A DNA stretch of 64,000 nt from a virus (IMGVR_UViG_3300045971_000149:32001-96000); one strand, 5' to 3'. Positions 20,724-36,347 are shown, counted from the first letter of the stretch. Notes: a model not told the origin generated them from the sequence alone. A program made the numbers and translations.

Positions 20724-20775
20724 GGGGCTTTATTGTGTTAGGCACAATCGCCGTCCATCCCCGCCTTGTTCGAAG
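20724..20775 (-). ncRNA. Candidate promoter-driven small RNA
   Basis: Promoter TTGACA(20804)/TACAAT(20781), no ORF before next promoter; shares GGGATGGACGGCGA with the 36.2-kb transcript. Confidence 0.5.
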
Positions 20776-20812
20776 TATGTATTGTAACACCTTCGATCAA
20801 GTTTGTCAATCC

Positions 20813-21058
20813 CTATCGTAGATCACCAAACAGGCTGAATCCAGTCTTGGGATCAGGAAGATCTGCGTTGTCGATTGGATGTATGACAGGCTCATCCTCT
20901 TGTTCAGCTTCGTCGGACAGCTTGATCAGGTTGAGCTCCTCCCATGCTCTCCACAGGTCGTAGTCAGGATCGCCAGTGTTGCTTTCCATAGCGGCTATTC
21001 CTTGTTGCAGGAACTGCAGGGCGATCTTAGCCCGGATGAGTTTCTCTTTGTGTTTCAT
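20813..21058 (-). CDS. Small acidic early protein
   Basis: AAGGAAG RBS; 81 aa. Confidence 0.7.
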   Translation of the reverse strand: MKHKEKLIRAKIALQFLQQGIAAMESNTGDPDYDLWRAWEELNLIKLSDEAEQEDEPVIHPIDNADLPDPKTGFSLFGDLR

Positions 21059-21070
21059 GTTATTGCTTCC

Positions 21071-21211
21071 TTAGAATATGATTACTTCGTCGCCGTCGTC
21101 TTTAACTTCGTCGATCGGGTTAGTGCAGTCCCACTCGCCACACCACACAGTTACCTGCTTGTCCTGATCCATACGAGACAACATCTCCATCAATTCGCGT
21201 ACAGTCATCAT
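21071..21211 (-). pseudogene. Small early gene with apparent frameshift
   Basis: MMTVRELMEMLSRMDQDKQVTV continues in another frame as GGEWDCTNPIDEVKDDGDEVIIF; shift at a TG run. Confidence 0.45.
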
Positions 21212-21267
21212 CTACTCCTTTGTTGCTATGTATGTATTATACTCTCTTTTGGACAGAGTGTCAACCG

Positions 21268-21495
21268 CTATCGCACTTCGAATCGACCTTTAGCGTCACG
21301 AGCTGGATTGCGATAGATGTCACGATAGCTGCCAGATGCTAGTTGATAGACTGCGATGTCGCGTTGCTCTGTCTTCCAGAGATTGTATACAAAGTTGCAG
21401 CATTCGCCTAGACTGTTGCTTTCAAACAACACCACAGCGTCATCATCGTGTGCCAGCTTGAACTCGGGATTAAGGTAGAAGCATTGGTATTCCAT
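21268..21495 (-). CDS. Small early hypothetical protein
   Basis: MEYQCFYL start after AAGGA. Confidence 0.65.
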   Translation of the reverse strand: MEYQCFYLNPEFKLAHDDDAVVLFESNSLGECCNFVYNLWKTEQRDIAVYQLASGSYRDIYRNPARDAKGRFEVR

Positions 21496-21496
21496 C

Positions 21497-21658
21497 TTAG
21501 ATCTTTGCGTCCTTAACCATAGCTTGACAGAAAAAACGGTAGCCATTGTCGCCACCAACAGACATACCACCTTGCAGTTTCCAACCATCTTCCAACATCT
21601 CGTTTACTGTGTCAGTGAGTGCGTCTGCGCTGGATTCTTGAACTGCAAAATATTCCAT
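21497..21658 (-). CDS. DUF1737-like small protein
   Basis: Manual translation: VNEMLEDGWKLQGG...FCQAMVK. Confidence 0.65.
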   Translation of the reverse strand: MEYFAVQESSADALTDTVNEMLEDGWKLQGGMSVGGDNGYRFFCQAMVKDAKI

Positions 21659-21709
21659 TGTGTGTCCTTTGTTGCTATGTATGTATTATACTCTCTTTTG
21701 GACAGAGTG

Positions 21710-22252
21710 TCAACCAAAGTCCCGTGCCATCTTGTACTCGCAACGAGCAATCTCTTCCAACTGCTCCTTGATGCTATGCAAGCGATCATACAGGCGTTCC
21801 ATAGCCATATCCTGCTCAGGACCTTCGCCCAATGCACCTTCCTGGTATGCATCCAACTGCTCCTGGATAGCGATCTGCTCTTCGCACAGGTTGCCCACAT
21901 CGCCTACCATCACCTTAGGAACCATAACCTTAGCCACTGCGGCAGCGGCCTTCTCCTGTGCAATCTCTACCAACTGGCCTGCATACTTGTTGATGCGCGG
22001 CACACCTTTCACGTTGGGCTTGCGCCAGTATGCGATCTGCTTGTCGGACAAGCGGTTGAACTTGCTGTAGAAGTTAGCCATTGACGTGCCCATACGTGCA
22101 TCGGCGGGTGTGAAGCCAATGCCGTTCTGGTAGCGGGTCTGTTCGCTTACTTGCTCGTCACGCACTTGGCGTTCGTTGAGCACTACCAAAGCACGGGCAA
22201 TGGCCTTGTTAGAAGTGTTCAGCAGGTCCAGGATTTGTTGCTTGCTTGTCAT
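21710..22252 (-). CDS. Conserved phage early hypothetical protein
   Basis: 180 aa, NGIGFTPADA motif; own promoter. Confidence 0.75.
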   Translation of the reverse strand: MTSKQQILDLLNTSNKAIARALVVLNERQVRDEQVSEQTRYQNGIGFTPADARMGTSMANFYSKFNRLSDKQIAYWRKPNVKGVPRINKYAGQLVEIAQEKAAAAVAKVMVPKVMVGDVGNLCEEQIAIQEQLDAYQEGALGEGPEQDMAMERLYDRLHSIKEQLEEIARCEYKMARDFG

Positions 22253-22287
22253 ACAGTACTCCTTGTTGCGATGTATGTATTATACAA

Positions 22288-22467
22288 TCAAACAGAAGCC
22301 TTGTCAACCTCTTTCTTCAGTTCGCTGTAGTTCTTCATCACAAAGACGTACTCGTCCTGTGTGAGTTTTGTTGCAGAAGCAGCTCTAGGATCGAGCATGT
22401 TCCACTTGCCGCTGCGTTGCACCTTGACGTAGGCTTTGAAGTCTTTCAGTTGCTTTGCTGTAAACAT
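22288..22467 (-). CDS. Small early hypothetical protein
   Basis: MFTAKQ; VQRSGKWNMLD..NYSEL. Confidence 0.7.
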   Translation of the reverse strand: MFTAKQLKDFKAYVKVQRSGKWNMLDPRAASATKLTQDEYVFVMKNYSELKKEVDKASV

Positions 22468-22527
22468 TGTGTCTCCTTGTTGCGATGTATGTATTATACA
22501 ATCAAACTGCAGACCTGTCAACCGGAA

Positions 22528-22701
22528 TCAGTACGTCTCTTTGTGGATTGTGAACTGATCTGCAGGATACTTTGCTTTGAACTCATCCGTAGCCATGTAC
22601 TCGCGCAAGGCTTTGGCGTCAAAGAACACCTTACTCAGGACCGATTGTAGCTTGCCGATTGGGCACACTGTAAGATAGACTGACTTCGCTTTACCTGCCA
22701 T
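22528..22701 (-). CDS. Small early hypothetical protein
   Basis: Manual translation MAGKAKSVYLTV...; AGGAG RBS. Confidence 0.65.
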   Translation of the reverse strand: MAGKAKSVYLTVCPIGKLQSVLSKVFFDAKALREYMATDEFKAKYPADQFTIHKETY

Positions 22702-22811
22702 TAGAGTTCTCCTGTGATCAAATAGAATGCCAAGTCGGCATCAAAGGGTTCCCAAGGGACGATACATTCCAATCCTACCCAATGAATGTACTCGTTGCTG
22801 AATGTAGACAT
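22701..22811 (-). CDS. Very small early protein (36 aa)
   Basis: MSTFSNEYIHW after promoter and AAGGA. Confidence 0.5.
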   Translation of the reverse strand: MSTFSNEYIHWVGLECIVPWEPFDADLAFYLITGEL

Positions 22812-22844
22812 ATCGTTCCTTTGTTTGTGTGCTATTATAACACG

Positions 22845-23216
22845 TTATTGCAGATTGAGCAACTCTTTTTCTTCCTGGCTCAACTTCGCAAGGGCGTTCT
22901 GACGAACCAAATACTTGCGCTCTGCTTCGGCACGTTCTTCTTCTTTCCACTTCACTGCCCAGCTTAGGTCGTCCAAATCAGACTCTGCATCGGTGCTGTA
23001 GAAGAAGTCGACTTCGAAGTAAGTGCGATCGCGTTTGTCCAGATCAAACAGGCTAAACGTCATGTCGTTGCGAGCAGCCATTTCAAAGTTCGCGTGTTGG
23101 GCACGTTGCAGGACTGCCATCAAACGATTTGGGTAGGATGCCTCTTGTTCTTCAAGCATTGCCTGACGCACTACTTCTTCCCGGGCCATACGCTCTGCTT
23201 TAGTTTCTTTTGCCAT
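22845..23216 (-). CDS. Early hypothetical protein
   Basis: MAKETK; C-term ALAKLSQEEKELLNL. Confidence 0.7.
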   Translation of the reverse strand: MAKETKAERMAREEVVRQAMLEEQEASYPNRLMAVLQRAQHANFEMAARNDMTFSLFDLDKRDRTYFEVDFFYSTDAESDLDDLSWAVKWKEEERAEAERKYLVRQNALAKLSQEEKELLNLQ

Positions 23217-23376
23217 TTCGTTCATCCTTTTTGTCTATGCGTTAATTATAGCAAGGTTTTACCAAAGCGTCAACACCTATTTCAAAGACCCTACAGGGTG
23301 ATGGGATAAATAAAAGTGCCGCTCGCGACACGCCAATGTCCAGCAGCTCTAACAGTTTATAAGGAACTAATCAGCA

Positions 23377-23727
23377 ATGTATTTACACTTCTATGTCTAC
23401 GCCTATCTGCGTATTGACGGCACACCCTACTACAAAGGCAATGGTGATCGAGCTTACGCAAAACACCGCATTCCTGTGCCAAAAGATCGATCGAGGATCG
23501 TGTTCCTTGAGACAAACCTAACTGATATCGGCGCATTGGCAATTGAGCGCAGACTGATTGCTTGGTACGGACGCAAGGACTTAGGCACAGGTATCTTGCG
23601 TAACCTTACAGACGGCGGCGAAGGTTCAAGTGGAGCAACTAGATCACAAGAAACTCGCGATAAAATATCAGCCGCAAAGAAAGGCATACCTGCTCATAAC
23701 AAAGGAAAAACGAGTAGGAAGAGTTAG
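23377..23727 (+). CDS. Degenerate GIY-YIG (Seg-like) homing endonuclease with NUMOD3-like tail
   Basis: [14 protein letters not shown](--)[32 protein letters not shown]; opposite strand to neighbours. Confidence 0.75.
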
Positions 23728-23771
23728 TTCCTACTGTTTGTTGCTATGTATGTATTTTACAACCGAAATGT

Positions 23772-23927
23772 CTACTTGTCAAGTGCTGTTAGGTCTTTTT
23801 TCAACCATGCAAGGTTAGTGGAACTCATCAACCGCAGACCATGGCGGAAGGCTATGTAGACTGACTTGGCGCCGCCTACGTGCTTCTCAATTATGAAAGT
23901 CTTGTACTGAAACCTATCTTTGATCAT
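23772..23927 (-). CDS. Small early hypothetical protein
   Basis: MIKDRFQYK. Confidence 0.55.
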   Translation of the reverse strand: MIKDRFQYKTFIIEKHVGGAKSVYIAFRHGLRLMSSTNLAWLKKDLTALDK

Positions 23928-23928
23928 G

Positions 23929-24120
23929 TTAGGCAACCTTTGTGATCTCACCGCGCCAGTAGCACTCGTAGGATCCACCGTCCCAACGTGCCTTGTAGGC
24001 CTGCGCTTCTTCCAGTGTTGTAAAGAACTTGGTGTCACTTGGATCGCAGCGTTGACCCCAACCTGCTTCGTACTCGGTGATCACTACCTTATACAGTGTT
24101 CCCATCTTGACTTCGGACAT
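23929..24120 (-). CDS. Small early hypothetical protein
   Basis: MSEVK; EYEAGWGQR; AAGGAG RBS. Confidence 0.7.
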   Translation of the reverse strand: MSEVKMGTLYKVVITEYEAGWGQRCDPSDTKFFTTLEEAQAYKARWDGGSYECYWRGEITKVA

Positions 24121-24170
24121 TTGCTTCTCCTTACTTGATGTATGTAGTATAACGCCGATCAGAGAAGATG

Positions 24171-24365
24171 TCAACCAACGAACTCCCTAACCCAATGAAA
24201 CCGTGTTGTAGCAGGCATCCACCGATACTGTTGACGCCTGCGTTCCTCTGTCTCAAAGTCGTAGCAGACGCAAACCCAACCGCGGTCTTCGGAGAACGCC
24301 ACCTTGTCAGCGACCTTCACAACCTGTACATACCTGCCGTCCATCATCTTTGCTACTATCATCAT
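24171..24365 (-). CDS. Small early hypothetical protein
   Basis: AGGAGG RBS; stop inside next -35 box. Confidence 0.7.
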   Translation of the reverse strand: MMIVAKMMDGRYVQVVKVADKVAFSEDRGWVCVCYDFETEERRRQQYRWMPATTRFHWVREFVG

Positions 24366-24429
24366 ATCGCCTCCTAGTCCATGCATGTATTATAGCAAAG
24401 AATAAAGACCCTGTCAACTGATGGGAATT

Positions 24430-24713
24430 AAACGGTTTACAGCAATGTTTCAGGTGGTCTGCGCATTAGCGACAACAGCAGCGATTCTACCGCTGTACGT
24501 CTATCTGAGGCCTATATAAATCAATGACTTACGTCGCCTTAACCGTAGCATCTGAGACAACTTTAAGTAGATCAAATAAACGAGCCGTTCCGCAGGAGTA
24601 GGCAACAGTGTGAAGCTCGCCCTTATGCCCACACGTTCCACTCCGAACACAAGGGCAATCACATCGGAAAGGGCACACCTGCCCAATTGGGATCCTGCCC
24701 TGCACAAGGGTGC
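24430..24713 (-). ncRNA. Candidate structured ncRNA
   Basis: 14-bp G-U-rich helix with possible pseudoknot; no credible ORF. Confidence 0.45.
24519..24531 (+). promoter_or_regulatory. IHF consensus site
   Basis: AATCAA-TGAC-TTA matches WATCAANNNNTTR with AT-rich 5' flank. Confidence 0.55.
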
Positions 24714-24839
24714 TCACTTTGCCACCTGTGTCACTGCCGCCTTAGTCGCTTCGATTCCTTTATCAGCAACCTTAGCAACCCCAGCGAAGCCCACGGTTGC
24801 TACCGCGATGCCCAAGATGAATCCGATTAGAAATTGCAT
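24714..24839 (-). CDS. Small membrane protein (41 aa)
   Basis: MQFLIGFILGIAVATVGFAGVAKVADKG; AAGGA RBS. Confidence 0.7.
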   Translation of the reverse strand: MQFLIGFILGIAVATVGFAGVAKVADKGIEATKAAVTQVAK

Positions 24840-24851
24840 AGTGTTTCCTTG

Positions 24852-25211
24852 TTAAGCAATTGACTTGAAGTAACCATAAGGGATGCCTTGTTCCCAGCAA
24901 AAGTAGTCCCAGTCGCCGTTGCAACCGCTAGCTTCCATCAACCAACGCAGTGCATCTTCACGTGAACCAGCACCAGTTGCAATCGTAGCGCGAACCAGCA
25001 ACTCCAGCTTCTCGATAGCCGCAACCTGATCCAACTCACGTTGTTCCCACACAACCTTAGCCTGCTCACCCAAACGGGTTAGCATCTCCACCAAGTCTTC
25101 TTCTGTGCAGGAAGCAAAGTCTACCCAACGAGGACGCACGTTGTACACTTCCTTGTAGAAGTCCCAGTACTCTGCTACCAGTTCGTCTTTGCGGGTCATT
25201 ACGTATTCCAT
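24852..25211 (-). CDS. Conserved phage early hypothetical protein
   Basis: WDFYKEVYNVRPRW motif; own promoter. Confidence 0.75.
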   Translation of the reverse strand: MEYVMTRKDELVAEYWDFYKEVYNVRPRWVDFASCTEEDLVEMLTRLGEQAKVVWEQRELDQVAAIEKLELLVRATIATGAGSREDALRWLMEASGCNGDWDYFCWEQGIPYGYFKSIA

Positions 25212-25267
25212 TGTGTGTCCTTTGTTGCTATGTATGTATTATACTCTCAATTCGCAGGGCTGTCAAC

Positions 25268-25384
25268 CTATCCCTTAGCGATCTTGATAGCAAGTGCAAT
25301 CAACTGTGCGGTAGTCAACGGAACGAACTTTTGGTCCTGAGCCCGCTTAACGTGATCTGCTTGAACAATAGTAAACTGTGGCAT
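25268..25384 (-). CDS. Very small early protein (38 aa)
   Basis: Own promoter and AAGGA RBS. Confidence 0.55.
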   Translation of the reverse strand: MPQFTIVQADHVKRAQDQKFVPLTTAQLIALAIKIAKG

Positions 25385-25439
25385 GTTGTTTCCTTAGTGT
25401 GTTGCGATGTATGTATTATAAGGCCAATTCGGAAAACTG

Positions 25440-25757
25440 TCAAGTAGTCTCTTCCAGTTCTTCCCATCCCATAGAAGCACACAAGTAGTTCACACCGTCC
25501 ACTTCTACAATGTCGCCTACACTAACAGAGCGACCACGTCCGTACAGTTGCTCGCGTTCGCCTTGACGCGACGGGTTGTTTGTCAGGTCAAATGCTTCTT
25601 CAGCAGCGTCAATGCCTTCTGCATCAACTGCAAAGCAAGGGCGGATCTCATAGGATTTGTAGTTGTCCATTGCCACGTTGGCTTGACCACGCTTGCTAGT
25701 GTAGAAAGACATTATCAGTTCTGCAGGGGCTAGCTTGATAGTTACTACTGAAATCAT
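25440..25757 (-). CDS. YodL-like domain protein
   Basis: AFDLTNNP..GRSVSVGDIVEV..Y..ASMGW. Confidence 0.6.
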   Translation of the reverse strand: MISVVTIKLAPAELIMSFYTSKRGQANVAMDNYKSYEIRPCFAVDAEGIDAAEEAFDLTNNPSRQGEREQLYGRGRSVSVGDIVEVDGVNYLCASMGWEELEETT

Positions 25758-25821
25758 TGTGTGCTCCTTGTTGCGATGTATGTATTATAACAAAGAAAGC
25801 AGGGGCTGTCAACCCCGTTGC

Positions 25822-26043
25822 TTACTTGAGACCAAACAGTCTTGCAGCTTCTAACGCAGCAGCAGGCAGCGGCTCGCCCGTGCTTTTTGCAATAGTAAAC
25901 GCGGCTTGCATTGCAGCAAGTTGCGCAGGGCTAACACGCACACCCAAATAGGAGCCAACCTCAACTTTAGCTTGCAAACTGCGCAAACTGTTAAGTTGAC
26001 GCTTGGACAAGTTGGAAACTACTGCGGATTGTACTGGAGTCAT
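25822..26043 (-). CDS. Small early hypothetical protein
   Basis: Own promoter/RBS. Confidence 0.65.
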   Translation of the reverse strand: MTPVQSAVVSNLSKRQLNSLRSLQAKVEVGSYLGVRVSPAQLAAMQAAFTIAKSTGEPLPAAALEAARLFGLK

Positions 26044-26107
26044 TTTGTGTTCCTTTGTTGCGATGTATGTATTATAGCGCCTTTCAATAACCCTGTCAAC
26101 CGATGGG

Positions 26108-26317
26108 TTATTCCTTCTCTTGCACCCAGAGGCTATCTAGGTCTGCATCTAGGTCTGCCAGCAACCCTGCAATCGCAAAGGCGTACTCATCACCAACATC
26201 TGTACCACCTAACTCTTGGGCAATAATTGCAGCGGCCGACTCCAGGCGCATCTTGGCCTGTGACAGGTTGTAGATTGCCTTACGTTGCTCTGCGGTGAGC
26301 GTTGCGGTGTTAGTCAT
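26108..26317 (-). CDS. Small acidic early protein
   Basis: 69 aa, second gene of its unit. Confidence 0.65.
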   Translation of the reverse strand: MTNTATLTAEQRKAIYNLSQAKMRLESAAAIIAQELGGTDVGDEYAFAIAGLLADLDADLDSLWVQEKE

Positions 26318-26320
26318 GCC

Positions 26321-26494
26321 CTATGCGCCTTCAATGCTTTCCAGCTCATGCAGTTGCACCATCAAGTCCAAACGCACGGCGTACAGGGCGTTGATCTCAT
26401 CCTCCATCCCATCCAACAGTTCCAGCAAGTCAATAGATCCTTGCAAGCGCAGGATTGCCATTTCCAAGTGGTGTGTTGCAGTAGTTCCGTCCAT
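26321..26494 (-). CDS. Small acidic early protein (57 aa)
   Basis: Manual translation MDGTTATHHLEMAIL...; AAGGAG RBS. Confidence 0.65.
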   Translation of the reverse strand: MDGTTATHHLEMAILRLQGSIDLLELLDGMEDEINALYAVRLDLMVQLHELESIEGA

Positions 26495-26576
26495 TGTGTA
26501 CTCCTTGTTGCGATGTATGTATTATAACGCTAAAGTGTGCAGCAGTCAACCAAAGACCCTGCACACTATAGGGCTA

Positions 26577-26810
26577 TTAATTTACTGTGTTGCAGCCCAT
26601 CAACTTACCCTTCAAGCTGTACGCACAAGCGTAAATGCGACCGGGCTCCATGCTGTCCTCTGTGCACGTTACAAACGCAAGCACTTCATCCTTGCCCTGA
26701 TACTTTACAACTTTAGCACTTTGTTGCAGGAAGTTGTTGCCGAAGGGCAGTTGCTTTTTAGCAACGGTGAATGCAATGCCGTTTGCGCTAACAGTAATGT
26801 CGTTTTTCAT
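26577..26810 (-). CDS. Small early hypothetical protein
   Basis: MKNDITV; own promoter. Confidence 0.65.
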   Translation of the reverse strand: MKNDITVSANGIAFTVAKKQLPFGNNFLQQSAKVVKYQGKDEVLAFVTCTEDSMEPGRIYACAYSLKGKLMGCNTVN

Positions 26811-26889
26811 AAAGCCCTTTGTGTTGTTTAAGTATGTATTATAACGCAAAGAAGGGCTACTGTCAACAATAGCCCTTCACGTTAGTCAA

Positions 26890-27150
26890 CTATGCAAGCA
26901 CACACTTGACAGTAATTCCTGCACCAAAACTACGGTGCCATGCCTCGGGTTCCTGCGTAAGCGTAACATTTTCCGCACCGCAAGCGGCACGCAATGCAGC
27001 AAGTGCCTTGTCGTTTCCGCGGTAATAGCACTTAACGCGGCGTTGGTTGCCCGTGTGTCCTGTTGTTTTGTTTGTGTACATCATATTTCCGTTAACGCCG
27101 TTGGCGCGCATGATGTTACGGACTTGCAGGGTGGTAAGCAGTTTAGCCAT
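26890..27150 (-). CDS. Small early hypothetical protein
   Basis: Own promoter/RBS. Confidence 0.7.
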   Translation of the reverse strand: MAKLLTTLQVRNIMRANGVNGNMMYTNKTTGHTGNQRRVKCYYRGNDKALAALRAACGAENVTLTQEPEAWHRSFGAGITVKCVLA

Positions 27151-27230
27151 TTCGTTTCCTTTTGCGTTTAAAAATGTATTATAACAGCAAAGCGCAAAGT
27201 TGTCAACAACCCTACGCTTTACTCAACTAC

Positions 27231-27551: not shown

Positions 27552-27625
27552 ACAGTTCCTTTGTTGCTATGTGTGTATTATAGCAGCAAAGCGCAAAGCT
27601 GTCAACAACCCTATGCACTGTAGGG

Positions 27626-27904: not shown

Positions 27905-27925
27905 TTTCGTTATCCTTTGTTATTT

Positions 27926-29099: not shown

Positions 29100-29108
29100 G
29101 ATAGTTCC

Positions 29109-29243: not shown

Positions 29244-29302
29244 TGTGTATTCCTTTGTTGCTATGTATGTATTATAACGTCTATCTTCTAACCTGTCAAC
29301 CT

Positions 29303-29706: not shown

Positions 29707-29707
29707 T

Positions 29708-29872
29708 TCAGTAATCTCCGTAGACTGCGTCAAGTTGCTCTTCAAAGTCAGCGATGATCTCTTCCACAATCTCCTGCGGCACAGAAGTAATAGCAGCAAT
29801 CTCGTCAGCAGCAAGACCTTGCTCGTCGTACAGCTCAGTAATCTCGCAGTACAGTTCTTTCATTTTGGACAT
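29708..29872 (-). CDS. Small very acidic protein, HTH-like
   Basis: MSKMKEL..GLAADEIAAITSVPQEIVEEII. Confidence 0.65.
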   Translation of the reverse strand: MSKMKELYCEITELYDEQGLAADEIAAITSVPQEIVEEIIADFEEQLDAVYGDY

Positions 29873-29942
29873 TGTGTGTTCCTTTGTTGCTATGTATGTA
29901 TGTATTATAACAGCCTTTTTACGGGCTGTCATCAAAGACCCT

Positions 29943-30191
29943 TTACACTAGTCGGAAATTCTTGCTGAGGAACTTTGACACTTTGCTGTAACCGTGCTCC
30001 TTAATCAGCTCGCTCACCAGTGCGTCTGCTTCGGGCGCATTGCCGCAAGTGGTCATACGATCTGCATCCAGCACCATTTCGATTGCATCCCCATTGGACT
30101 CGCAGAACTCCATAGCATCGGAACCAATGTAGTTCCAAGTTGCGTAAACGGCTTGATTGAGTTGGGAAATAACTGTTGCGTCTAGCTTCAT
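29943..30191 (-). CDS. Small early hypothetical protein
   Basis: Own promoter/RBS. Confidence 0.7.
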   Translation of the reverse strand: MKLDATVISQLNQAVYATWNYIGSDAMEFCESNGDAIEMVLDADRMTTCGNAPEADALVSELIKEHGYSKVSKFLSKNFRLV

Positions 30192-30290
30192 ACTGTACTC
30201 CTTGTTGCGATGTATGTATTATAGCGCCTATTGAAAAAACAGTCAAGAGAAACCCGCCACAAAGGACGGGTTTAAGTGAGCTAGGAAAGC

Positions 30291-30563
30291 TTACAGAGTG
30301 ATGCCAAGTGCACGCGCCTTGAAGCCCAATGCAACGATCTCACGGCTTGGACGTCCGAGTTCGTATTCTGTGACTACAACGCCATTGCCAGCAGTGCGAG
30401 TATTTGCGTAGACTGCGTATCCGAATTGACGGATACGTGATGCTTCTGCGCGTAGATTGCCAACTGAGAAGCGATTACGTGCTTCTGCTTGTGTCAACTT
30501 CTCGCCTGCTGCCAATGCTGCGAATACCTTACCGGTCTTAGTGTCTTGATTAATCTTCTTCAT
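30291..30563 (-). CDS. Winged-helix DNA-binding protein
   Basis: LTQAEARNRFSVGNLRAEASRIRQFGYAV pattern typical of small phage wHTH. Confidence 0.6.
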   Translation of the reverse strand: MKKINQDTKTGKVFAALAAGEKLTQAEARNRFSVGNLRAEASRIRQFGYAVYANTRTAGNGVVVTEYELGRPSREIVALGFKARALGITL

Positions 30564-30625
30564 TTGTTATTCCTTGTAATACTGCTTAACAGTTAATACA
30601 AGTATAACAACAACGATTTGGTAAA

Positions 30626-30847
30626 TCAAGCACTTATCTTGCCAAATTCCTTTTTCGTGTGATAGTTAGCCAGCATCTCGTGTACCATACTAACTACATT
30701 GTCGTGATCTTCAGTTAGAAGGAACTGAACAGGGCTTTTACTCCAAGAGCGGTTCTTCAAGAACTCTGAATAGATATCACGATGCTTCTTGTCCGCCGGA
30801 TTGAACATTACAGTCGGACGGCCATAGTTTTGCAAAACGCTTGCCAT
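30626..30847 (-). CDS. Small hypothetical protein
   Basis: FNPADKKHR..SWSKSPVQF. Confidence 0.7.
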   Translation of the reverse strand: MASVLQNYGRPTVMFNPADKKHRDIYSEFLKNRSWSKSPVQFLLTEDHDNVVSMVHEMLANYHTKKEFGKISA

Positions 30848-30848
30848 A

Positions 30849-31070
30849 TTAGCTAGACTTTATAGAAGATTTAAACAACAAGCCGCACAGGACATTGATT
30901 CCTAATGCAGTCCATACAGAGTTGATTGGATGAATTCCGTCAACAACTCCTACCAAGCAATCATTCCATAGCCACATTGTAGGGTATGCAAACAGCAATG
31001 CCATTACCACAACGATTGCAACAATGCCAACGATTCCGACAATAACAACAAACAACTTATCCATATTCAA
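30849..31070 (-). CDS. Small membrane protein
   Basis: Two hydrophobic segments, MWLWN. Confidence 0.7.
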   Translation of the reverse strand: MNMDKLFVVIVGIVGIVAIVVVMALLFAYPTMWLWNDCLVGVVDGIHPINSVWTALGINVLCGLLFKSSIKSS

Positions 31071-31111
31071 CTCCAGTTAAAGTACTATACAGCGGGGTCT
31101 TGGGTATTGAA

Positions 31112-31549
31112 TTAAACCAATGCTTCGCCAACGGCCTTAAGTGCTTCGTCGTCGGTAAGCTTCTTCTTAATAACTGCCTTTGCTTCGGCGATAGTCACGA
31201 GCGGGCCAGTAGGGCCTTCAACTGCGGGCAGCTTAGCCTTAACAGCTTTAGTCTTTGCAGGAGCTTCCTTCTTGGGCTTGTCTTTGGATGCAGCTTTAGG
31301 AGCGGGTTCGGAACGCTTGTCAACTTCAGCTTCCAATGCAGCACGGATCTCTGCTTTGCCGTTGTCAAAGTCAATGCCGATCAAATATGCAACTGCATCT
31401 TCCTTGGACATTGGGTGTTTCAATTCCACGATATCAATATCAACGTGGCCGTTCTTTGCAAGCACCTTAACGCGCATTGCGTCATTGGCATAGCGAACTT
31501 TGTATTCGCCGTTCAGTTTAGATACGCCAGCATGTGAAAAAGTAGTCAT
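31112..31549 (-). CDS. Early protein, paralog of 20090..20359, with Lys/Ala/Pro tail
   Basis: GVSKLNG..VRYAND..VLAKNGHVD. Confidence 0.75.
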   Translation of the reverse strand: MTTFSHAGVSKLNGEYKVRYANDAMRVKVLAKNGHVDIDIVELKHPMSKEDAVAYLIGIDFDNGKAEIRAALEAEVDKRSEPAPKAASKDKPKKEAPAKTKAVKAKLPAVEGPTGPLVTIAEAKAVIKKKLTDDEALKAVGEALV

Positions 31550-31635
31550 TTGTAGTTCCTTCTGTGTGTGTTTTAAACAGCACCTTGCTGTCTATGTGTT
31601 AATTATAACGCCTAATGGAAAATTCGTCAACCAAT

Positions 31636-31749
31636 TTATTGTTGTTTTTCTGCAACAATATTGAAGCCTGCTTCGGCTTGCTCATCTGCTTCGTATTGTG
31701 TATACACTGTGAACAGGTACAGTTCACCGTCCCAAATTTGATAGCTCAT
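31636..31749 (-). CDS. Very small acidic protein (37 aa)
   Basis: MSYQIWDGELYLFTV; overlaps upstream stop. Confidence 0.55.
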   Translation of the reverse strand: MSYQIWDGELYLFTVYTQYEADEQAEAGFNIVAEKQQ

Positions 31750-32165
31750 TCCGCATCCTTTGCCATAGCTGTAGTCAGGTCTTCAAAACCGTTGTCGTCA
31801 ATGTTCACATACCACTTGCCGTCAGTACGCAGGATGTAGTCAAATCCTTGCATGTCTCCGCTGTTTTGGTAGTGCAGGAAGTCAGTAAAGCGTTCCTTGC
31901 CTTGCTCAGTATCACCGCGATCGCGTCCGTAGAACACGCATACGCCCTTCTGTGCGTTTTCGAACCAATGTGCCCCGGTTGGCTCAACAGCCGCAGCAAG
32001 GACGGATACATTGCCCAAATCGATTAGCTTTTGCAGCTTGAACGGATCGCTGTAGCTATCGCGCAAGATGCGTCCATTGTGCGACAAGTAACCATCCCAG
32101 TGGCAATACACTTGCTCTACTGTGCCGTCTGCATACTCGAGTGCGATCGTGCTGTTTGTGCTCAT
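31746..32165 (-). CDS. Conserved phage early protein
   Basis: VYCHWDGY, FYGRDRG motifs. Confidence 0.75.
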   Translation of the reverse strand: MSTNSTIALEYADGTVEQVYCHWDGYLSHNGRILRDSYSDPFKLQKLIDLGNVSVLAAAVEPTGAHWFENAQKGVCVFYGRDRGDTEQGKERFTDFLHYQNSGDMQGFDYILRTDGKWYVNIDDNGFEDLTTAMAKDAE

Positions 32166-32215
32166 TACGTTCCTTTGTTGCTATGTATGTATTATAGCGC
32201 CTTTCGGCGCTGCTG

Positions 32216-32455
32216 TCAAACGATGCTAGCAATAACCACTTTACTAGCAGGGTCAAACTTCAAGTACACTTTTGCCTTTACAAGCTTATCTACCTCCAGC
32301 ATTGTTACAGCATAGCAGAACTCACTGCCGTTAGTTAAGCCCAAAAACTTTGCACTTTGGAACAGCATATTCTTGTTCCCTTGTGCTTCCAACGTAAGCG
32401 CAAGACCTGCGTCGTCGTATGTAGTAAGCATCTTGAGCTGTGCGGCTGTGATCAT
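32216..32455 (-). CDS. Small early hypothetical protein
   Basis: MITAAQL; own promoter. Confidence 0.7.
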   Translation of the reverse strand: MITAAQLKMLTTYDDAGLALTLEAQGNKNMLFQSAKFLGLTNGSEFCYAVTMLEVDKLVKAKVYLKFDPASKVVIASIV

Positions 32456-32505
32456 GTATACTCCTTGTTGCGATGTATGTATTATAGCGCCTTTCGGCGC
32501 TGCTG

Positions 32506-32880
32506 TCAAGCCTTCCAGTTGTAACGCGGATCGTACTCTTTGTTGATCTTTTGTATAGCTTGAAACGCAAACTCCTGCGACTTGCGCACTGCAACCTTCA
32601 CCTTACCTGCACGTTGCTTCTTAGCTTCGTACAGCGACTCGTACCATGTAGCGCCGTGGTCGGGGCTGTAGCGCATGGGCTTGTAATACTTTGTGCCCTT
32701 CAGCTGGCGCGTAAGGTAGCCGTAAGTAGTGTCAGTCCACTTAAAGCCACGATCGTAGCTGCCGCTTTGGCTGTTGCGCTCATACAACACAACAGTCACT
32801 ACATACTTGCCCAACAGGCATTCCTTGCCTTCGTTTGCTACATACTCTGCTACTACAGGTGTTGGGGAAAGTGTCTTCAT
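32506..32880 (-). CDS. Early hypothetical protein
   Basis: Own promoter/RBS. Confidence 0.7.
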   Translation of the reverse strand: MKTLSPTPVVAEYVANEGKECLLGKYVVTVVLYERNSQSGSYDRGFKWTDTTYGYLTRQLKGTKYYKPMRYSPDHGATWYESLYEAKKQRAGKVKVAVRKSQEFAFQAIQKINKEYDPRYNWKA

Positions 32881-32943
32881 AGTGTGTTCCTTGTTGCGAT
32901 GTATGTATTATAGCGTCTTTCAATAACCCTGTCAACCGATGGG

Positions 32944-33306
32944 TTATTCCCAGTTCACACTTATGTTGACTTCAACATCCTTTAGGCCGCCAGCGAGATC
33001 GTACTTGATGCCAGTGACGATAGCGCCGTACAGTACGTCTTTCAGTTGTGCTTTGACCTCTGTAACAAGGTCAGCGAGCAGATCGTCGAGCATGTCTTCG
33101 ACGCTATGTCTAACACCGCTTAGAGTTGCTTGCAGTTCGTCGCGTGTAGTGCCCATCTCACCGTCACCGTCGCACATCATGTCAACATAAGCTTCAGTTT
33201 GGTCGGCGAGCGCTTTACGCACGATTGCCTGCGCCACTTGCTTTTGTTTCCACATGATGTCGTGAGCGCCGAAGTTCTCTACAGGTGTTTTAACGATAAC
33301 GGTCAT
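32944..33306 (-). CDS. Early hypothetical protein
   Basis: GAGGAG RBS. Confidence 0.7.
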   Translation of the reverse strand: MTVIVKTPVENFGAHDIMWKQKQVAQAIVRKALADQTEAYVDMMCDGDGEMGTTRDELQATLSGVRHSVEDMLDDLLADLVTEVKAQLKDVLYGAIVTGIKYDLAGGLKDVEVNISVNWE

Positions 33307-33309
33307 ACA

Positions 33310-33546
33310 TTACTCCTCTTCTGTTGTAAACTCAGCTTGCAGTGCTTCTTTCCACTCGGAATTGCGTTCCACCCAATCGTGCACAAAGCCCAGCATTGCT
33401 TCCAATGCGCCGCTGTTATCTGCAAGGAAGTCTGTCACATCCCTGTAGCCGAGCACTTTAACCACTTGCTCAAACTTGCGCACGCCGCTATGGCCTTCGA
33501 AGCTATACAAGTTTTCCTGATCTAAATACAAGTCTAGTGCGTTCAT
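33310..33546 (-). CDS. Small acidic early protein
   Basis: FLADNSGA motif; own promoter. Confidence 0.7.
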   Translation of the reverse strand: MNALDLYLDQENLYSFEGHSGVRKFEQVVKVLGYRDVTDFLADNSGALEAMLGFVHDWVERNSEWKEALQAEFTTEEE

Positions 33547-33628
33547 TGTGTACTCCTTGTTGCGATGTATGTATTATAACAAAGAAACGGACTACTGTCA
33601 ACCAATAGCCCGCCGCCCTGTAGGGCCT

Positions 33629-33901
33629 TTAGAAGTACATCACCCGGGTGCGATCTGTGTTTTCAAAGCGTTCCGGGAAGTCCAGGATACCTTGCTCGTT
33701 ATAGCGAACGCCCGGGTTGCCTTCGCACTCACCGTTGATCAGTGATCGGAAGCCGCGATAGTTGCCTGTCTGATGCAGTACTGCTTCGAGCACGTTCATT
33801 GCACCTTGTCGCACATCAACACGATCGGGAGCACTGTTCTTGCAGATGCCGTTAACCATATCAGTGAGTTCCGAAACACTAAACGTTTTGCGCTTTGTCA
33901 T
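33629..33901 (-). CDS. Small early hypothetical protein
   Basis: LHQTGNYRGF; own promoter. Confidence 0.7.
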   Translation of the reverse strand: MTKRKTFSVSELTDMVNGICKNSAPDRVDVRQGAMNVLEAVLHQTGNYRGFRSLINGECEGNPGVRYNEQGILDFPERFENTDRTRVMYF

Positions 33902-33978
33902 CTTTAACTCCTTGTTGTTTAAGTATGTATTATAACGTCATTCTGCAATACAGTCAACCAAAGACCCTACAGTCTGCT

Positions 33979-34167
33979 CTAGTACTTTCCAGCATCCACA
34001 AACGTACGATCCTTAGCAAAGAAGGTCATTGGCTTGCTTAAGACTACGGGCTCGTTGGATCCTGCCTTTATGTATGCAAAGAGCCGTGTCTTGTCCGTAG
34101 AGAGCAAGTAGATGTGGTTGGGAGCTGTGACGCTCCACTTGGTTGTCTCCTGGAAGTATCGCATCAA
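33979..34167 (-). CDS. Small early hypothetical protein
   Basis: QETTKW..PNHIYLL. Confidence 0.65.
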   Translation of the reverse strand: MMRYFQETTKWSVTAPNHIYLLSTDKTRLFAYIKAGSNEPVVLSKPMTFFAKDRTFVDAGKY

Positions 34168-34496
34168 TCCATCCTGTCGTCTGCGTAGAACTTAACGCCC
34201 AGCCGTGCAGTAAGCAGATCAGCAGCAGCCTGCGCACCTGCGCTCAGTGCATCCACGCTCTGCGAATTGCTCTTGCTGGGATTCCACAGTTGATAGCCGC
34301 CGCCATATGTCTTAGAGAAGCCGTACTTCTTCAGTTCGCGCACAAGCTTAGAAGTGCCTTTCTCATAGGTCTTAACCCAGGCAAAACCGCAAGCACCGCG
34401 ATCACCGTGTTTGGAAAGGAATGCAGCGGTTGCTTTGGAAGCTTCCTGCATAGCATCTGCAACAGCGACCTTAACGTGAGTGTTAACTTCTTGCAT
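34164..34496 (-). CDS. Conserved phage early protein
   Basis: GACGFAWV, QSVDA motifs. Confidence 0.75.
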   Translation of the reverse strand: MQEVNTHVKVAVADAMQEASKATAAFLSKHGDRGACGFAWVKTYEKGTSKLVRELKKYGFSKTYGGGYQLWNPSKSNSQSVDALSAGAQAAADLLTARLGVKFYADDRMD

Positions 34497-34557
34497 ATCA
34501 ACTCCTAGTGTGTTTGTGTAAGTATGTATTATAACGCCGTTTTACAGAACTGTCAAC

Positions 34558-34869
34558 CTACATCGACCAATAAGATTCGTATGCGGGCGACATGAAGCAA
34601 GGAGTGTCCTCTGCTTCCATGTAGGGCAGGCCGGACATGAGGTTGATCCGCTCGACCATCTTCACGGGGCGCTTGCTGTACTCAGCGACTGCCATCACCT
34701 TCCATTGCACAACATCCTTGCCGTCTACAACGACCAACTCGTATCCAGTGTACTCTCTGTTCAAACGAGTACATTGTGCCTTAGCAGCACGTTCGGTCTT
34801 GTACTTGGACGGGAGCCAGTAGTGCTTACCGTAGGGCTTTTCCGTTCCAACATTGATTACATACCACAT
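34558..34869 (-). CDS. Early hypothetical protein
   Basis: C-term NLMSG..DTPCFMSPAYESYWSM. Confidence 0.75.
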   Translation of the reverse strand: MWYVINVGTEKPYGKHYWLPSKYKTERAAKAQCTRLNREYTGYELVVVDGKDVVQWKVMAVAEYSKRPVKMVERINLMSGLPYMEAEDTPCFMSPAYESYWSM

Positions 34870-34878
34870 ATCAAACTC

Positions 34879-35025
34879 CTATCGGTTGTTGCGACGCACG
34901 TTGATGTGCATATCGTAGCTGTCGTGATTGACTAAGCTATCCCATACAGTCCACTTGTCAGTAAGCTTACTGAAGAACACAGTGTCAATCAGCTTGCCAT
35001 TCAAGTACACGTTCCAAGCTTGCAT
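34879..35025 (-). CDS. Small early protein (48 aa)
   Basis: MQAWNVYLNGKLIDTVF..SLVNHD; own promoter. Confidence 0.7.
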   Translation of the reverse strand: MQAWNVYLNGKLIDTVFFSKLTDKWTVWDSLVNHDSYDMHINVRRNNR

Positions 35026-35067
35026 GTCTACTCCTTGTTGCGATGTATGTATTATAACACCGTTTGG

Positions 35068-35259
35068 CTACGCTGTCAACCTATAGAACGAGTGTATGTC
35101 GTTCTCTGCATCATACCGGATCTCAACATTGCCCACGGTGCAGTTATCATCTTCGTCTACTGCACAGGCAAACTCATTGACATCACTCCACGGCAGGTAC
35201 GGGTTAGTACATTCACCATCTGCGTCAAACGAGTCAACGCAGTTGCCAAGGTATGTCAT
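35068..35259 (-). CDS. Small acidic early protein
   Basis: MTYLGNCVDSFD. Confidence 0.65.
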   Translation of the reverse strand: MTYLGNCVDSFDADGECTNPYLPWSDVNEFACAVDEDDNCTVGNVEIRYDAENDIHSFYRLTA

Positions 35260-35260
35260 T

Positions 35261-35482
35261 TTAGCAATCCGGATCGTAGTCTGCCCACTCTTGGGCTTCA
35301 TCGGGCTGGCCGTCGTTCTCTTCTTCGTAGTCTTCATCAAAGCGCTCGCTCAACTCGTTAGCATCCAGCATGCCTGCAACGTCATCCTCGGACATGTACG
35401 ACATGCACATATCCACAACAGCTTCGTGGCTGATAGCGCCCTGGTCAAGCAGATCATACAAACGGTTAGTAGCTTTGCGCAT
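35261..35482 (-). CDS. Small very acidic early protein
   Basis: YMSEDDVAGML..DGQPDEAQEWADYDPDC. Confidence 0.75.
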   Translation of the reverse strand: MRKATNRLYDLLDQGAISHEAVVDMCMSYMSEDDVAGMLDANELSERFDEDYEEENDGQPDEAQEWADYDPDC

Positions 35483-35517
35483 AGTGTGCTCCTTGTTGCG
35501 ATATATGTATTATAGCG

Positions 35518-35871
35518 TCAAACAACGAAAGCGTCAAGCTTTCTTTTCAAAGACCCTACATTGCGAAGGGCTTCTTCAACCGCTTCGTTGATCATGTCAT
35601 CAGCAGTTCCGTCCGTAAGTACTTCTTTGGCATCCTCGTAGCAGCAACCTCCAACACAGGCATCGCCCATAGTATAGCCGTCGAGCAACACACGAACCCG
35701 CAGGAAGAACCAATCGTAGATGCCGTTATCGATCTTCTCACAGATCTCTTTTACATCCGGCGTATCAAAGCAATCGCGGGGATGTATGCTATCTTCGTAG
35801 GACTTATCCACAATGACTTCAAATCCGTCTTCACGTGTATAACGTTTGAGTTCGTCGTAATAGCGTTGCAT
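35518..35871 (-). CDS. Acidic early hypothetical protein
   Basis: MQRYYDEL; VGGCCY. Confidence 0.7.
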   Translation of the reverse strand: MQRYYDELKRYTREDGFEVIVDKSYEDSIHPRDCFDTPDVKEICEKIDNGIYDWFFLRVRVLLDGYTMGDACVGGCCYEDAKEVLTDGTADDMINEAVEEALRNVGSLKRKLDAFVV

Positions 35872-35881
35872 AGTGTGCTCC

Positions 35882-36085
35882 TTAGTATTCAATCAATGTC
35901 TTAACACCAAACATGTATCCCAGCTTGATCAACGAGCTGCGAGTAGGTTCGCAGGAGTTGTCGTCTAGCTTGAAGATCTCGTCACGCAGAGCATCGGGTG
36001 CAGCTTCAAACAATTCGTAGATGCCACGACCTTCTGCATCATTTAAATCCTTACAAGCTTCAGCGAAGTCTTTAAGAGTCTGCAT
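35882..36085 (-). CDS. Small early hypothetical protein (first of array)
   Basis: Own promoter/RBS. Confidence 0.7.
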   Translation of the reverse strand: MQTLKDFAEACKDLNDAEGRGIYELFEAAPDALRDEIFKLDDNSCEPTRSSLIKLGYMFGVKTLIEY

Positions 36086-36178
36086 AGTAGTTCCTTTGTG
36101 TTTAAGTATGTATTATAGCGTAAATCGGCAAAGCTGTCATCAAAGACCTTATAGTGTAGTAGGACTCTGGGATACCGG

Positions 36179-36207
36179 TTGACGCTTTACCAAAACGGTG
36201 TTATAAT
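36179..36207 (+). promoter_or_regulatory. Divergent early-type promoter
   Basis: TTGACG-17-TATAAT with extended TG, followed by ACATGCAT like the array leaders. Confidence 0.8.
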
Positions 36208-36212
36208 ACATG

Positions 36213-36347
36213 CATAAGAAGAAAAGCTCATAGAGCAACAAGAATGTTTCGAAGCACAATAAAGCGGGATGGACGGCGAGGGTGCGCGTCCGGATTGGCA
36301 CTATACATAAAAGAAAACCCGTGTTACTCGAAATAACACAGGTTATT
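36213..36347 (+). ncRNA. Candidate small RNA
   Basis: Between strong promoter and hairpin 36316-36345; no RBS-led ORF. Confidence 0.5.

Follow-up and report, generated by a model that had tools for sequence, protein, structure and literature searches.

A promoter-coupled leader element of freshwater jumbo phages and its possible role at a replication origin

Two related, promoter-driven units lie on opposite strands of the window (the whole 64,000-nucleotide stretch analysed, part of a 157,925-bp viral record), and their sequences are best explained as copies of one leader element that is coupled to early promoters across a family of uncultured freshwater giant phages (jumbo myophages). A window scan placed the 14-mer GGGATGGACGGCGA at 20748-20761 (minus strand) and 36266-36279 (plus strand), downstream of a consensus sigma-70 promoter in both cases. 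No further copy with up to two mismatches was found in the window or in the whole record, and two copies were reached in 0 of 100 shuffles of the window. The 11-mer CACAATAAAGC occurs at 20727-20737 (minus) and 36255-36265 (plus); we put the probability that an exact 11-mer would recur no more than about 40 nt from each 14-mer at roughly 1e-3, an estimate reached by inference rather than computation. The earlier note had read these shared blocks as permuted. Both blocks are indeed common to the two units, but the units are collinear as TTCGAA, N6 or N12, the 14-mer, NN and GTGC, and the permutation is limited to the 11-mer. The description of the units as ORF-less likewise holds for frames of at least 40 aa, but there are frames of 6, 13 and 30 codons, none of them conserved. 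The features of the two units are as follows.

20678-20706, minus: next cassette promoter, its start 3 nt past the cassette-end hairpin
20710-20737, minus: recurrent cassette-end module, the 11-mer CACAATAAAGC (20727-20737) plus the hairpin CCCTACGGTGCATAGGG (20710-20726)
20738-20758, minus: 6-codon micro-frame, ATG GAC GGC GAT TGT GCC TAA, starting within the 14-mer (sequence reading)
20739-20774, minus: canonical-type leader element TTCGAACAAGGCGGGGATGGACGGCGATTGTGCCT, containing the 14-mer (20748-20761); closest relative form, L213
20781-20809, minus: minus-unit promoter, TTGACA-17-TACAAT with a TG extended -10
36179-36207, plus: plus-unit promoter, TTGACG-17-TATAAT with TG, divergent from the array promoter 36140-36112
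36214-36246, plus: A-rich 5' extension like the standard cassette leader (AGCAACAAGAA), poorly conserved in the relatives G001 and L225
36244-36336, plus: 30-codon frame from the ATG at 36244 (sequence reading)
36247-36288, plus: variant-type core, TTCGAA, inserted GCACAATAAAGC, then GGGATGGACGGCGAGGGTGCGCG; 39-41 of 42 positions identical to G001 and L225
36269-36310, plus: 13-codon frame, its ATG within the 14-mer (sequence reading)
36316-36344, no strand assigned: plus-unit end hairpin; on the minus strand, a strong 13-pair terminator plus T-run for tRNA-Met
36350-36424, minus: tRNA-Met (CAT), convergent with the plus unit

The promoter of the plus unit is, as had been claimed, the sole plus-strand early promoter among 35 early-type promoters in the window, and the hairpin at which the unit was said to end was found at 36316-36344. 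By eye, the right arm and tail of this hairpin align with a DnaA-box pair of G001 at 12 of 15 positions. Homology to the L188-type terminator region is seen at the 3' end of the unit, AAAAGAAAACCCG. Counterparts of the 13-codon frame have 11 codons in G001 and 27 in L225, with unrelated C-termini, and the 30-codon frame is not conserved, G001 having no ATG there and an in-frame TGA upstream. Across the three boundary copies of the variant form, identity is 93-98% over 42 nt versus 55-72% in the flanks and 29-65% in shared early proteins. The plus unit would represent one such boundary copy, a variant with a 12-nt insert, whose DnaA boxes were presumably lost and whose end is now the tRNA-Met terminator. 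Homology of the minus unit to the family ends after about 35 nt, beyond which it is fused to a standard cassette end; the same module of CACAATAAAGC and hairpin also precedes several array promoters. No canonical terminator was found between the minus unit and the promoter starting at 20706, just the weak recurrent hairpin at 20710-20726, and since that promoter starts 3 nt past the hairpin, the minus-unit transcript would be able to enter the 75-aa gene at 20444-20671. This unit may be a second, canonical-type copy put inside the array by recombination.

The family element reads TTCGAA-N7-GGG[G/A]TGGACG, with the 14-mer as its core, and was found in about 30 related jumbo-phage contigs but is absent from cultured relatives. 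Conservation of the 14-mer in relatives, for which the earlier note had proposed a search, was borne out: the core GGG[G/A]TGGACG is invariant in 27 units of related phages, an invariance equal to that of the promoter hexamers, while the 11-mer is absent from 37 of 37 canonical units and in the minus unit is part of the cassette-end module, and so it was dropped as a family element. Strong selection on the 14-mer is supported. A sigma-70 -10 box lies 8-10 nt upstream of the canonical element in all 29 IMG/VR loci that carry it, and the element starts about 3 nt or less from the predicted transcription start; in the variant copies it lies about 34 nt further away. Most canonical copies also carry a 12-bp palindrome, ATGTTCGAACAT, at the start site and an ATG about 7 nt past the -10 box, this ATG being missing from the L188-type units, L195, L198, L214, G001 and the minus unit. 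Located at the border of the early-gene array, the element faces outward, behind the one sigma-70 promoter that is directed away from the array. Each of the relatives G002-G006 has one copy (G002 is 383 kb and 100% complete, G003 356 kb and 96% complete), unlike the window's record, which has two. An extended consensus of TTCGAA, about 7 nt and GGG[G/A]TGGACG(GCGA) would occupy a G-rich RNA 5' end with no predicted structure. In Rfam searches of the window, at the gathering threshold, and of five relatives' loci, at an E-value threshold of up to 1, tRNAs alone reached any gathering score.

In most relatives the element is followed by 4-10 DnaA boxes, which are sites for the host DnaA protein; in 10 distinct loci the first box lies at +46/47 relative to TTCGAA, and among 59 loci fetched via an early protein such clusters are essentially confined to those carrying the element. 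In G002 the sole DnaA cluster, with 7 boxes, comes immediately after the element, and beyond it stretches about 1 kb of repeat-rich DNA with few ORFs; four loci carry 22-bp direct repeats instead of the boxes. This tie between the element and DnaA-box arrays, missed in the earlier note, points to a cis role at an origin or control region. DnaA boxes are missing at both copies in the window, and no cluster was found anywhere in the 158-kb record or in the near-complete G003. Because G003 nevertheless retains a perfect element, within a compact unit bounded by promoter and terminator, element function does not require the boxes. No terminator was found within 700 nt downstream in most DnaA-box loci. 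In some relatives the unit is instead a compact RNA gene, about 135 nt long and closed by a terminator. A promoter and a Rho-independent terminator were found in the plus unit, L188, L189, L191, L207, L198 and L192, and for the plus unit and four relatives an intrinsic terminator predicts an RNA of about 130-145 nt. L199 and L200 have ORFs past the DnaA boxes on the strand of the unit.

The best, if tentative, reading of these data is a leader transcript that acts in cis to activate or prime a replication origin. Strong transcription from the early promoter would open the region; alternatively, a persistent G-rich RNA-DNA hybrid would be left as a primer or helicase-loading site. The DnaA boxes, or in some lineages the 22-bp repeats, would be exchangeable accessory sites, and in most relatives the transcript would enter the sole DnaA-box cluster at a fixed distance and then about 1 kb of non-coding, repeat-rich sequence. 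The element's conservation, its position and its coupling to promoters and DnaA boxes were observed directly, and from them we infer that transcripts are made, that a hybrid may form and that the region is a candidate origin. In favor of an origin, the first 60 transcribed nucleotides have a GC skew of +0.36, versus +0.02 at 371 other early promoters. The element is predicted to be unpaired in centroid folds, and the predicted folds of the unit RNAs are no better than those of shuffles. Cumulative GC skew in G002 shows only a local turn at the element, which is accounted for by gene orientation. Against an origin, no clear AT-rich unwinding element is present. A search for a T4 gp59-type loader (N-terminal domain) gave no match, but it was equally blank in control genomes.

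Precedents include the persistent hybrid of ColE1 RNA II and the transcriptional activation of ori-lambda and oriC (PMC5043065). In a ColE1-type origin the RNA hybrid both opens and primes the DNA, and a plasmid or phage initiator is unnecessary (PMC5043065). The promoters at oriC (mioC/gidA) and ori-lambda (pR) differ from those described here in that they drive protein genes and have no conserved leader element. In ColE1 RNA II the hybrid is stabilised by a G-run in the RNA, and in pBR322 a DnaA box downstream aids helicase loading. Like ColE1/pBR322, the phage units pair a host-RNA-polymerase promoter with a non-coding RNA at a (here putative) origin. While the ColE1 G-rich segment lies about 550 nt downstream, the conserved one here would lie at +1 to +30; antisense RNA I is not evident, the DnaA boxes number 4-10, against a single one, and the hybrid is hypothetical. 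The T4 origins oriF (uvsY) and oriG (gene 34) are R-loop origins for which a promoter and a short downstream region are enough; the retained transcript primes the leading strand, and DnaA and iterons are unnecessary. A DnaA-free origin of this kind in phages of the T4-like superfamily would fit G003 and the window. While the T4 origins depend on middle-mode (MotA) promoters together with an AT-rich unwinding element, the element described here is G-rich and invariant, and it has no sequence similarity to them.

Several other explanations were weighed against an origin leader. The earlier note had proposed an early sRNA family with a conserved seed, that is, a trans-acting RNA whose invariant single-stranded 5' seed pairs with a host or unsampled phage RNA; we consider this possible but unlikely. 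The body of such an RNA would consist of hairpins, a U-rich stretch and a terminator, with the DnaA boxes as neighbors or as a conditional roadblock that sets its length. The part of the proposal that stood is the seed itself, as the core is invariant, promoter-proximal at the 5' end and predicted to be unpaired. The element is also kept in genomes without DnaA boxes, and compact units that span about 130-190 nt from promoter to terminator (the plus unit, L188, L189, L191, L207 in G003, and L198) have in common an AGTTAGT/ACTAACT hairpin whose loop varies, a U-rich hairpin and a terminator, to which the homology of the plus-unit 3' end adds. The proposal falls short at most DnaA-box loci, where the terminator is missing and the transcript would meet the boxes at the fixed +46. 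No complementary site in the 158-kb record rose above shuffled-query controls, a scan of bacterial genomes for the element gave coding-motif coincidence only, and covariation is nearly nil (1 of 37 pairs). A CsrA/RsmA sponge, also suggested, was rejected. Known CsrA sponges carry many GGA motifs in hairpin loops, and many conserved motifs would be required, but 21 of 27 cores have a single GGA and 6 a tandem. Like CsrB/RsmY/RsmZ these are non-coding RNAs with GGA; they differ in having just 1-3 per whole RNA (3 in the 137-nt plus RNA, 2 in the minus RNA and 1-2 in L188-type RNAs). A transcription-control signal within the initially transcribed region, recognized by RNA polymerase or by a phage factor, is improbable, whether as a sigma-70-dependent promoter-proximal pause (-10-like CATAGT plus a G-run, with C-G at about +25/+26) or as a nut-like or operator site governing polymerase read-through. 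Its closest analogues would be lambda PR' with 6S RNA and nutL/nutR. Like PR'/6S, the units combine a strong constitutive promoter and a conserved candidate signal in the first transcribed bases, a -10-like hexamer plus GGG, with a short, ORF-less terminated transcript, predicted here for the plus unit; CATAGT and GGGGG at about +10 to +20 match the design of the PR' sequence caacgatggg. The fixed spacing from the -10 box, the palindrome on the start site, the two opposite-strand copies behind early promoters, as for nutL/nutR, and the same-strand ORFs in L199/L200 would also suit such a signal. In the canonical units GGGGG follows CATAGT, CAAGGT or CAAAGT, but the minus copy has CAAGGC, without the key T, and the variants, with CACAAT or CACTAT and a 5-nt gap, shift the element away from the start site. 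Further, no lambda-type Q protein (PF06530) was found in five genomes, two of them near-complete, neither late genes nor anything co-directional lies downstream of the plus unit in the window, and the invariant stretch, at ten bases, is longer than a pause signal and exceeds what one needs.

Coding or decay could also account for parts of the pattern: the core could be a conserved micro-ORF (M-D-G-...) or a leaderless start-site ORF, or the window copies, especially the minus one, could be non-functional remnants of recombination, all of which we judge quite improbable. The sole variable core base, G/A, gives a GTG or ATG start codon in 27 of 27 units, AAGG precedes the ATG of the minus unit by 5 nt, most canonical copies have the start-site ATG, and the minus unit is truncated and joined to a cassette end. 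The codons after the start, however, are not conserved: frames range in length from 6 to over 40 codons, their C-termini are unrelated, and changes in codons 3 and 4 are mostly non-synonymous. The start-site ATG is lacking in the units listed above, nucleotide conservation is far above the need of a 3-residue peptide, and an intact core is unexpected in a decaying remnant. We consider highly improbable the last alternative, that the element derives from or mimics a type I-E CRISPR repeat but lacks the hairpin, its early RNA acting as an anti-CRISPR-like decoy against host CRISPR-Cas. Such a decoy would be Cas6e-independent, for example occupying handle-binding Cascade subunits, or might invade the 5' stem arm of host pre-crRNA repeats. 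In local alignments to a P. aeruginosa I-E repeat (PMC5727412), with 5000 shuffles per query, the likeness without a hairpin that the earlier note had described was recovered: the best variant, the ATG-type (L197-type) canonical form, was identical in 21 of 26 columns across repeat positions 2-27, nearly the whole repeat. Its score was reached by 3 of 5000 shuffles, versus 41 for the common canonical form and 107 for the minus unit, but the plus unit was at chance (1025), and the repeat family had been picked after the sequence was seen. Solitary repeat units often lie directly downstream of a promoter, as the element does of its predicted promoter, and a repeat stem-loop is a selection feature for candidate RNA anti-CRISPRs (PMC10651486). 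While the element shares with Racr and solitary repeat units a promoter-proximal, non-coding, apparently I-E repeat-like phage sequence, the stem-loop is absent and acr/aca genes were not noted nearby. CGAAC replaces the 5' stem arm CCCCAC, which makes the repeat hairpin impossible, and none of the element's forms has CCCC, CCCAC or CCCGC ahead of its G-run. Most relatives have G where the repeat handle carries A, and mimicry leaves the DnaA-box coupling unexplained. Were this highly improbable reading true, the element, expressed from early promoters of the strongest kind, would represent a novel type of CRISPR-Cas decoy made of RNA or transcribed DNA, family-wide in freshwater jumbo phages. 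Under the preferred reading, a leader acting in cis at an origin, the element may mark the site at which replication of these phages starts.

Between 18.4 and 36.2 kb of the window, the early array holds ∼35 promoters that follow the pattern TTGACA-N17-TATAATACAT, all on the minus strand except the one at 36179-36207, as the earlier note had claimed. Nearly all are followed by the leader ACAT(C/A)GCAACAA(A)GGAG, an ATG and a small gene. A consensus sigma-70 promoter also stands in front of each of the two units considered here, the plus unit (promoter 36179-36207) and the minus unit (promoter 20809-20781). The blocks common to both, located by sequence search, and the hairpin closing the plus unit are:

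20748-20761 (minus strand) and 36266-36279 (plus strand), the 14-mer GGGATGGACGGCGA
20727-20737 (minus strand) and 36255-36265 (plus strand), the 11-mer CACAATAAAGC
36316-36344, hairpin closing the plus unit; on the minus strand, the terminator of tRNA-Met 36350-36424

Both blocks are as first described, and the hairpin was found where the plus unit was said to end. At up to two mismatches, the 14-mer has just these two copies in the window (two copies in 0 of 100 shuffles) and likewise in the whole 157,925-bp record. The description of both units as ORF-less holds merely as "no long ORF", because frames of 6, 13 and 30 codons exist. The minus unit opens with the leader-like ACTTCGAACAAGG, and the ATG within its 14-mer begins the 6-codon frame; the 14-mer ATG of the plus unit begins the 13-codon frame and ATG 36244, which is not kept in the related contig G001, the 30-codon frame. 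The minus unit lacks a proper terminator, and its 11-mer together with the hairpin CCCTACGGTGCATAGGG forms a recurrent cassette-end module also present before promoters 27605, 20420 and 19719. The permuted block order noted earlier applies to the 11-mer alone, as the units can also be aligned collinearly through TTCGAA, N6/N12, the 14-mer, NN and GTGC.

Other features of the array were recorded alongside. The hairpin CCCTAC(A/G)GTGCATAGGG is repeated at cassette ends, abutting the next -35 box (20710-20726, 20423-20441, and before 27605 and 19719), and may stop antisense transcription, because its plus-strand reading, with a T-run, scores as a terminator. A third promoter-driven geneless unit lies at 23704-23782 (minus strand; promoter 23782-23750 and standard leader), with the hairpin GTAGGAACTAACTCTTCCTAC and a T-run straight after the leader, giving a predicted RNA of ∼45 nt; a 116-aa ORF (23377-23727) occupies the opposite strand. 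G001 contains an empty cassette (locus L126, record position ∼47203-47300), in which an early promoter and leader are followed by ATG TAA, a start-stop without a gene. The array (18000-36000) has 46-50% G+C as compared to 34-43% elsewhere in the window, and the array of the complete 383-kb relative G002 rises likewise. It also carries two divergent phrog_1250 paralogues on the minus strand (18486-19403 and 27926-28801; 305 and 291 aa). In G001, as in G002, both match a single locus (29-33% versus 63-64% identity), suggesting that part of the array was imported or duplicated.

The record, an IMG/VR contig estimated to be 44% complete, is from a jumbo myophage whose 1118-aa tail sheath and early 291-aa protein are nearest to those of Pseudomonas phage PA5oct and Agrobacterium phage Atu_ph07 (42-46% identity). 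Megablast of both loci against cultured phages gave no match, and blastn with a relative's unit returned nothing but DnaA-box-like matches in microviruses. Searching IMG/VR with the 14-mer alone was uninformative because of >120 chance matches, and a 22-mer spanning promoter and leader matched nothing there. A 24-mer around the plus-unit core matched a single IMG/VR contig, G001, which has the same divergent arrangement as the window, a 42-nt core identical at 40 of 42 positions and common early proteins with 29-65% identity. Alignment of one early protein then yielded 59 related loci, ten of which (eight new, G001 and the window's own record) have a divergent promoter in front of ATGTTCGAACA(T/A)(A/G)GTGGGGGTGGACGGCGA; clustered TGTGGATAA/TTATCCACA, which are DnaA boxes, come next in the nine relatives among them. 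In the other loci of this protein family, an analogous divergent unit was not found within range. A degenerate-pattern search returned 29 IMG/VR loci, one per contig, and a metagenome scan added L225, the third variant-type relative.

A sigma-70 promoter is present in all 29 IMG/VR loci, with 8-10 nt from the end of the -10 box to TTCGAA. Across an alignment of 27 units, TTCGAA occurs throughout, and three stretches do not vary: TTGAC of the -35 box, the greater part of the -10 box, and the core GGG-TGGACG. The conservation in relatives on which the earlier note had staked its 14-mer is found in this core. Three units (the plus unit, G001 and L225) are of a variant type, with GCAC(A/T)ATAAAGC in place of CATAGTG and the promoter ∼34 nt farther upstream. 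The 11-mer lies beside the core in these variant units alone (0 of 37 canonical units). The minus unit belongs with the canonical units and is nearest to locus L213. The leader has a GC skew of +0.36 versus +0.02 for other early leaders, and its purine content does not set it apart. RNA folding gave z-scores from -1.5 to +0.85 and no stable or covarying fold; a 4-bp hairpin 3' of the core is weakly supported, and a helix that would close the core by pairing GUUCG with YGGGC was rejected, being present in about half of the units only and easily formed by chance in G-rich sequence. The firm result is that the element is non-coding and, in relatives, single-copy, is tied to the start of the sole promoter leaving the early array, is conserved to the same degree as that promoter and lies in the genome's principal non-coding control region.

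The plus unit is orthologous to the G001/L225 boundary unit but stripped of its DnaA boxes. The minus unit, an additional copy of canonical type, has a 3' part from another lineage and is joined to an ordinary cassette end; we read it as having arisen by recombination among cassettes. The common 11-mer is most likely, with some uncertainty, a trace of this mosaic ancestry rather than a permutation with a function. Tandem duplication plus deletion would be an unparsimonious origin for it, the 3' parts being of different types (L200/G001 in the plus unit, L213 in the minus unit). No IMG/VR relatives were found for the genes flanking the minus unit.

Downstream of the element, most loci have 4-10 DnaA boxes inside 330 nt. 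Ten distinct loci have their first box at +46/47 from TTCGAA; in loci with an inserted hairpin, AGTTAGT...ACTAACT, it comes later. In G002 the element is single-copy, and the seven DnaA boxes after it are the sole cluster in the genome, followed by ∼1 kb of ORF-poor, repeat-rich DNA. In place of DnaA boxes, four loci (L194, L201, L208 and L214) have 22-bp direct repeats, CCTGGTTGACAAnATGGGTATT, that look like iterons of a different initiator. In four more, among them G003 (96% complete), the boxes are degenerate and an intrinsic terminator is present, which makes a compact unit of ∼135 nt with conserved hairpins; no DnaA cluster is present anywhere in G003. A hybrid, L198, has two DnaA boxes between element and terminator. 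No DnaA cluster was found in the window's 158-kb record, and the right flank of the plus unit has no synteny with G002. By-eye alignment likens the 3' end of the plus unit to the terminator region of the L188 type, and its hairpin arm to a DnaA-box pair of G001. Neighboring ORFs of L214 and of the window include no replication functions, the cumulative GC skew of G002 gives no origin signal, and neither element nor DnaA cluster was found in the terminal repeat of PA5oct, where ncRNAs are known from RNA-seq. To the right of the plus unit, CAGCGGGGTC (plus-strand reading) occurs in five perfect copies ∼300-400 nt apart (36987, 37291, 37622, 38018 and 38297), two of them within an unannotatable 334-aa ORF (36493-37497); it is also clustered in the G002 non-coding control region past the DnaA boxes and near the G001 unit. 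The G003 early-promoter array (L247-L264) leaves the contig end (352.8-356.3 kb) and continues at its start (0.4-4 kb), which makes this 356-kb contig a circular permutation. A number of short contigs stop 0.4-1.5 kb past the element, within repeat-rich DNA.

Several identities for the element were tried and set aside. It matched no Rfam family, tRNAs alone reaching a gathering score. The CsrA sponge suggested earlier from tandem GGA fails, since tandem GGA occurs in just 6 of 27 cores and the RNAs have 1-3 GGA each. A conserved peptide was rejected, with frames ranging from 6 to >40 codons, unrelated ends and mostly non-synonymous early codon changes; the sole variable base of the core gives ATG or GTG in every unit, and an ATG at the transcription start is absent from several lineages. 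As for a copy of a host RNA, a bacterial-genome scan gave eight matches, five of them in the CoA-transferase motif S-N-N-A-G-V-D (L216-L218, L220 and L222; subunit A genes of several phyla), which we judge to be a chance match to a conserved, G-rich run of codons and not a host homologue. The earlier note had also raised mimicry of a type I-E CRISPR repeat. The comparison covered one repeat, that of P. aeruginosa as printed in PMC5727412. The canonical element aligns to its positions 2-27, at scores matched by 3 of 5000 shuffles for the ATG-type variant, 41 for the common form and 107 for the minus unit; the score of the plus unit was matched by 1025 of 5000. The repeat hairpin cannot form because the 5' arm of its stem is replaced. 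Racr candidates were picked on likeness to a CRISPR repeat in both sequence and secondary structure (PMC10651486). Derivation of the element from such a repeat, or mimicry of one, has a low probability.

The pattern is best fit, tentatively, by a putative replication origin activated or primed by transcription, because the element is usually partnered, at a fixed distance, with the genome's only DnaA-box array, which is exchangeable for other repeats or dispensable. The promoter and G-rich leader would be the constant part of such an origin, and initiator sites, whether DnaA boxes or other repeats, its accessories. At T4 oriF and oriG, a promoter and a short downstream region suffice. The role proposed for the element also has precedents in the transcription-linked origins ColE1 RNA II, oriC and ori-lambda, the latter two transcriptionally activated (PMC5043065). 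A phage-encoded DnaA C-terminal domain was searched for and is absent, and a search for the gp59 N-domain was silent everywhere, control genomes included. Retention of the element in terminator-bounded units without DnaA boxes would suit a trans-acting sRNA, which we consider less likely than an origin; no antisense target in the 158-kb record beat shuffled controls apart from the loci themselves. Less probable still is a transcription-control signal, for which the fixed distance from the promoter, the palindrome at the start site and a design similar to lambda PR' speak, although a lambda-type Q gene was not found in the genomes searched.

We know of no mapped replication origin or origin-linked RNA for Rak2/PA5oct-like jumbo phages or their uncultured freshwater relatives. 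Since the element is kept with or without DnaA boxes, or beside 22-bp repeats, it behaves like the fixed component in a modular control region. Should it prove to act in trans as an sRNA, or to derive from a CRISPR repeat, it would represent a new phage regulatory RNA family, absent from Rfam. It offers a precise, conserved, single-copy landmark, in which a promoter is followed by a core of 10 invariant nt and, in most relatives, by the only DnaA-box cluster of the genome. At this one site the initiation of replication, reliance on host DnaA and early transcription of non-coding RNA all become testable.
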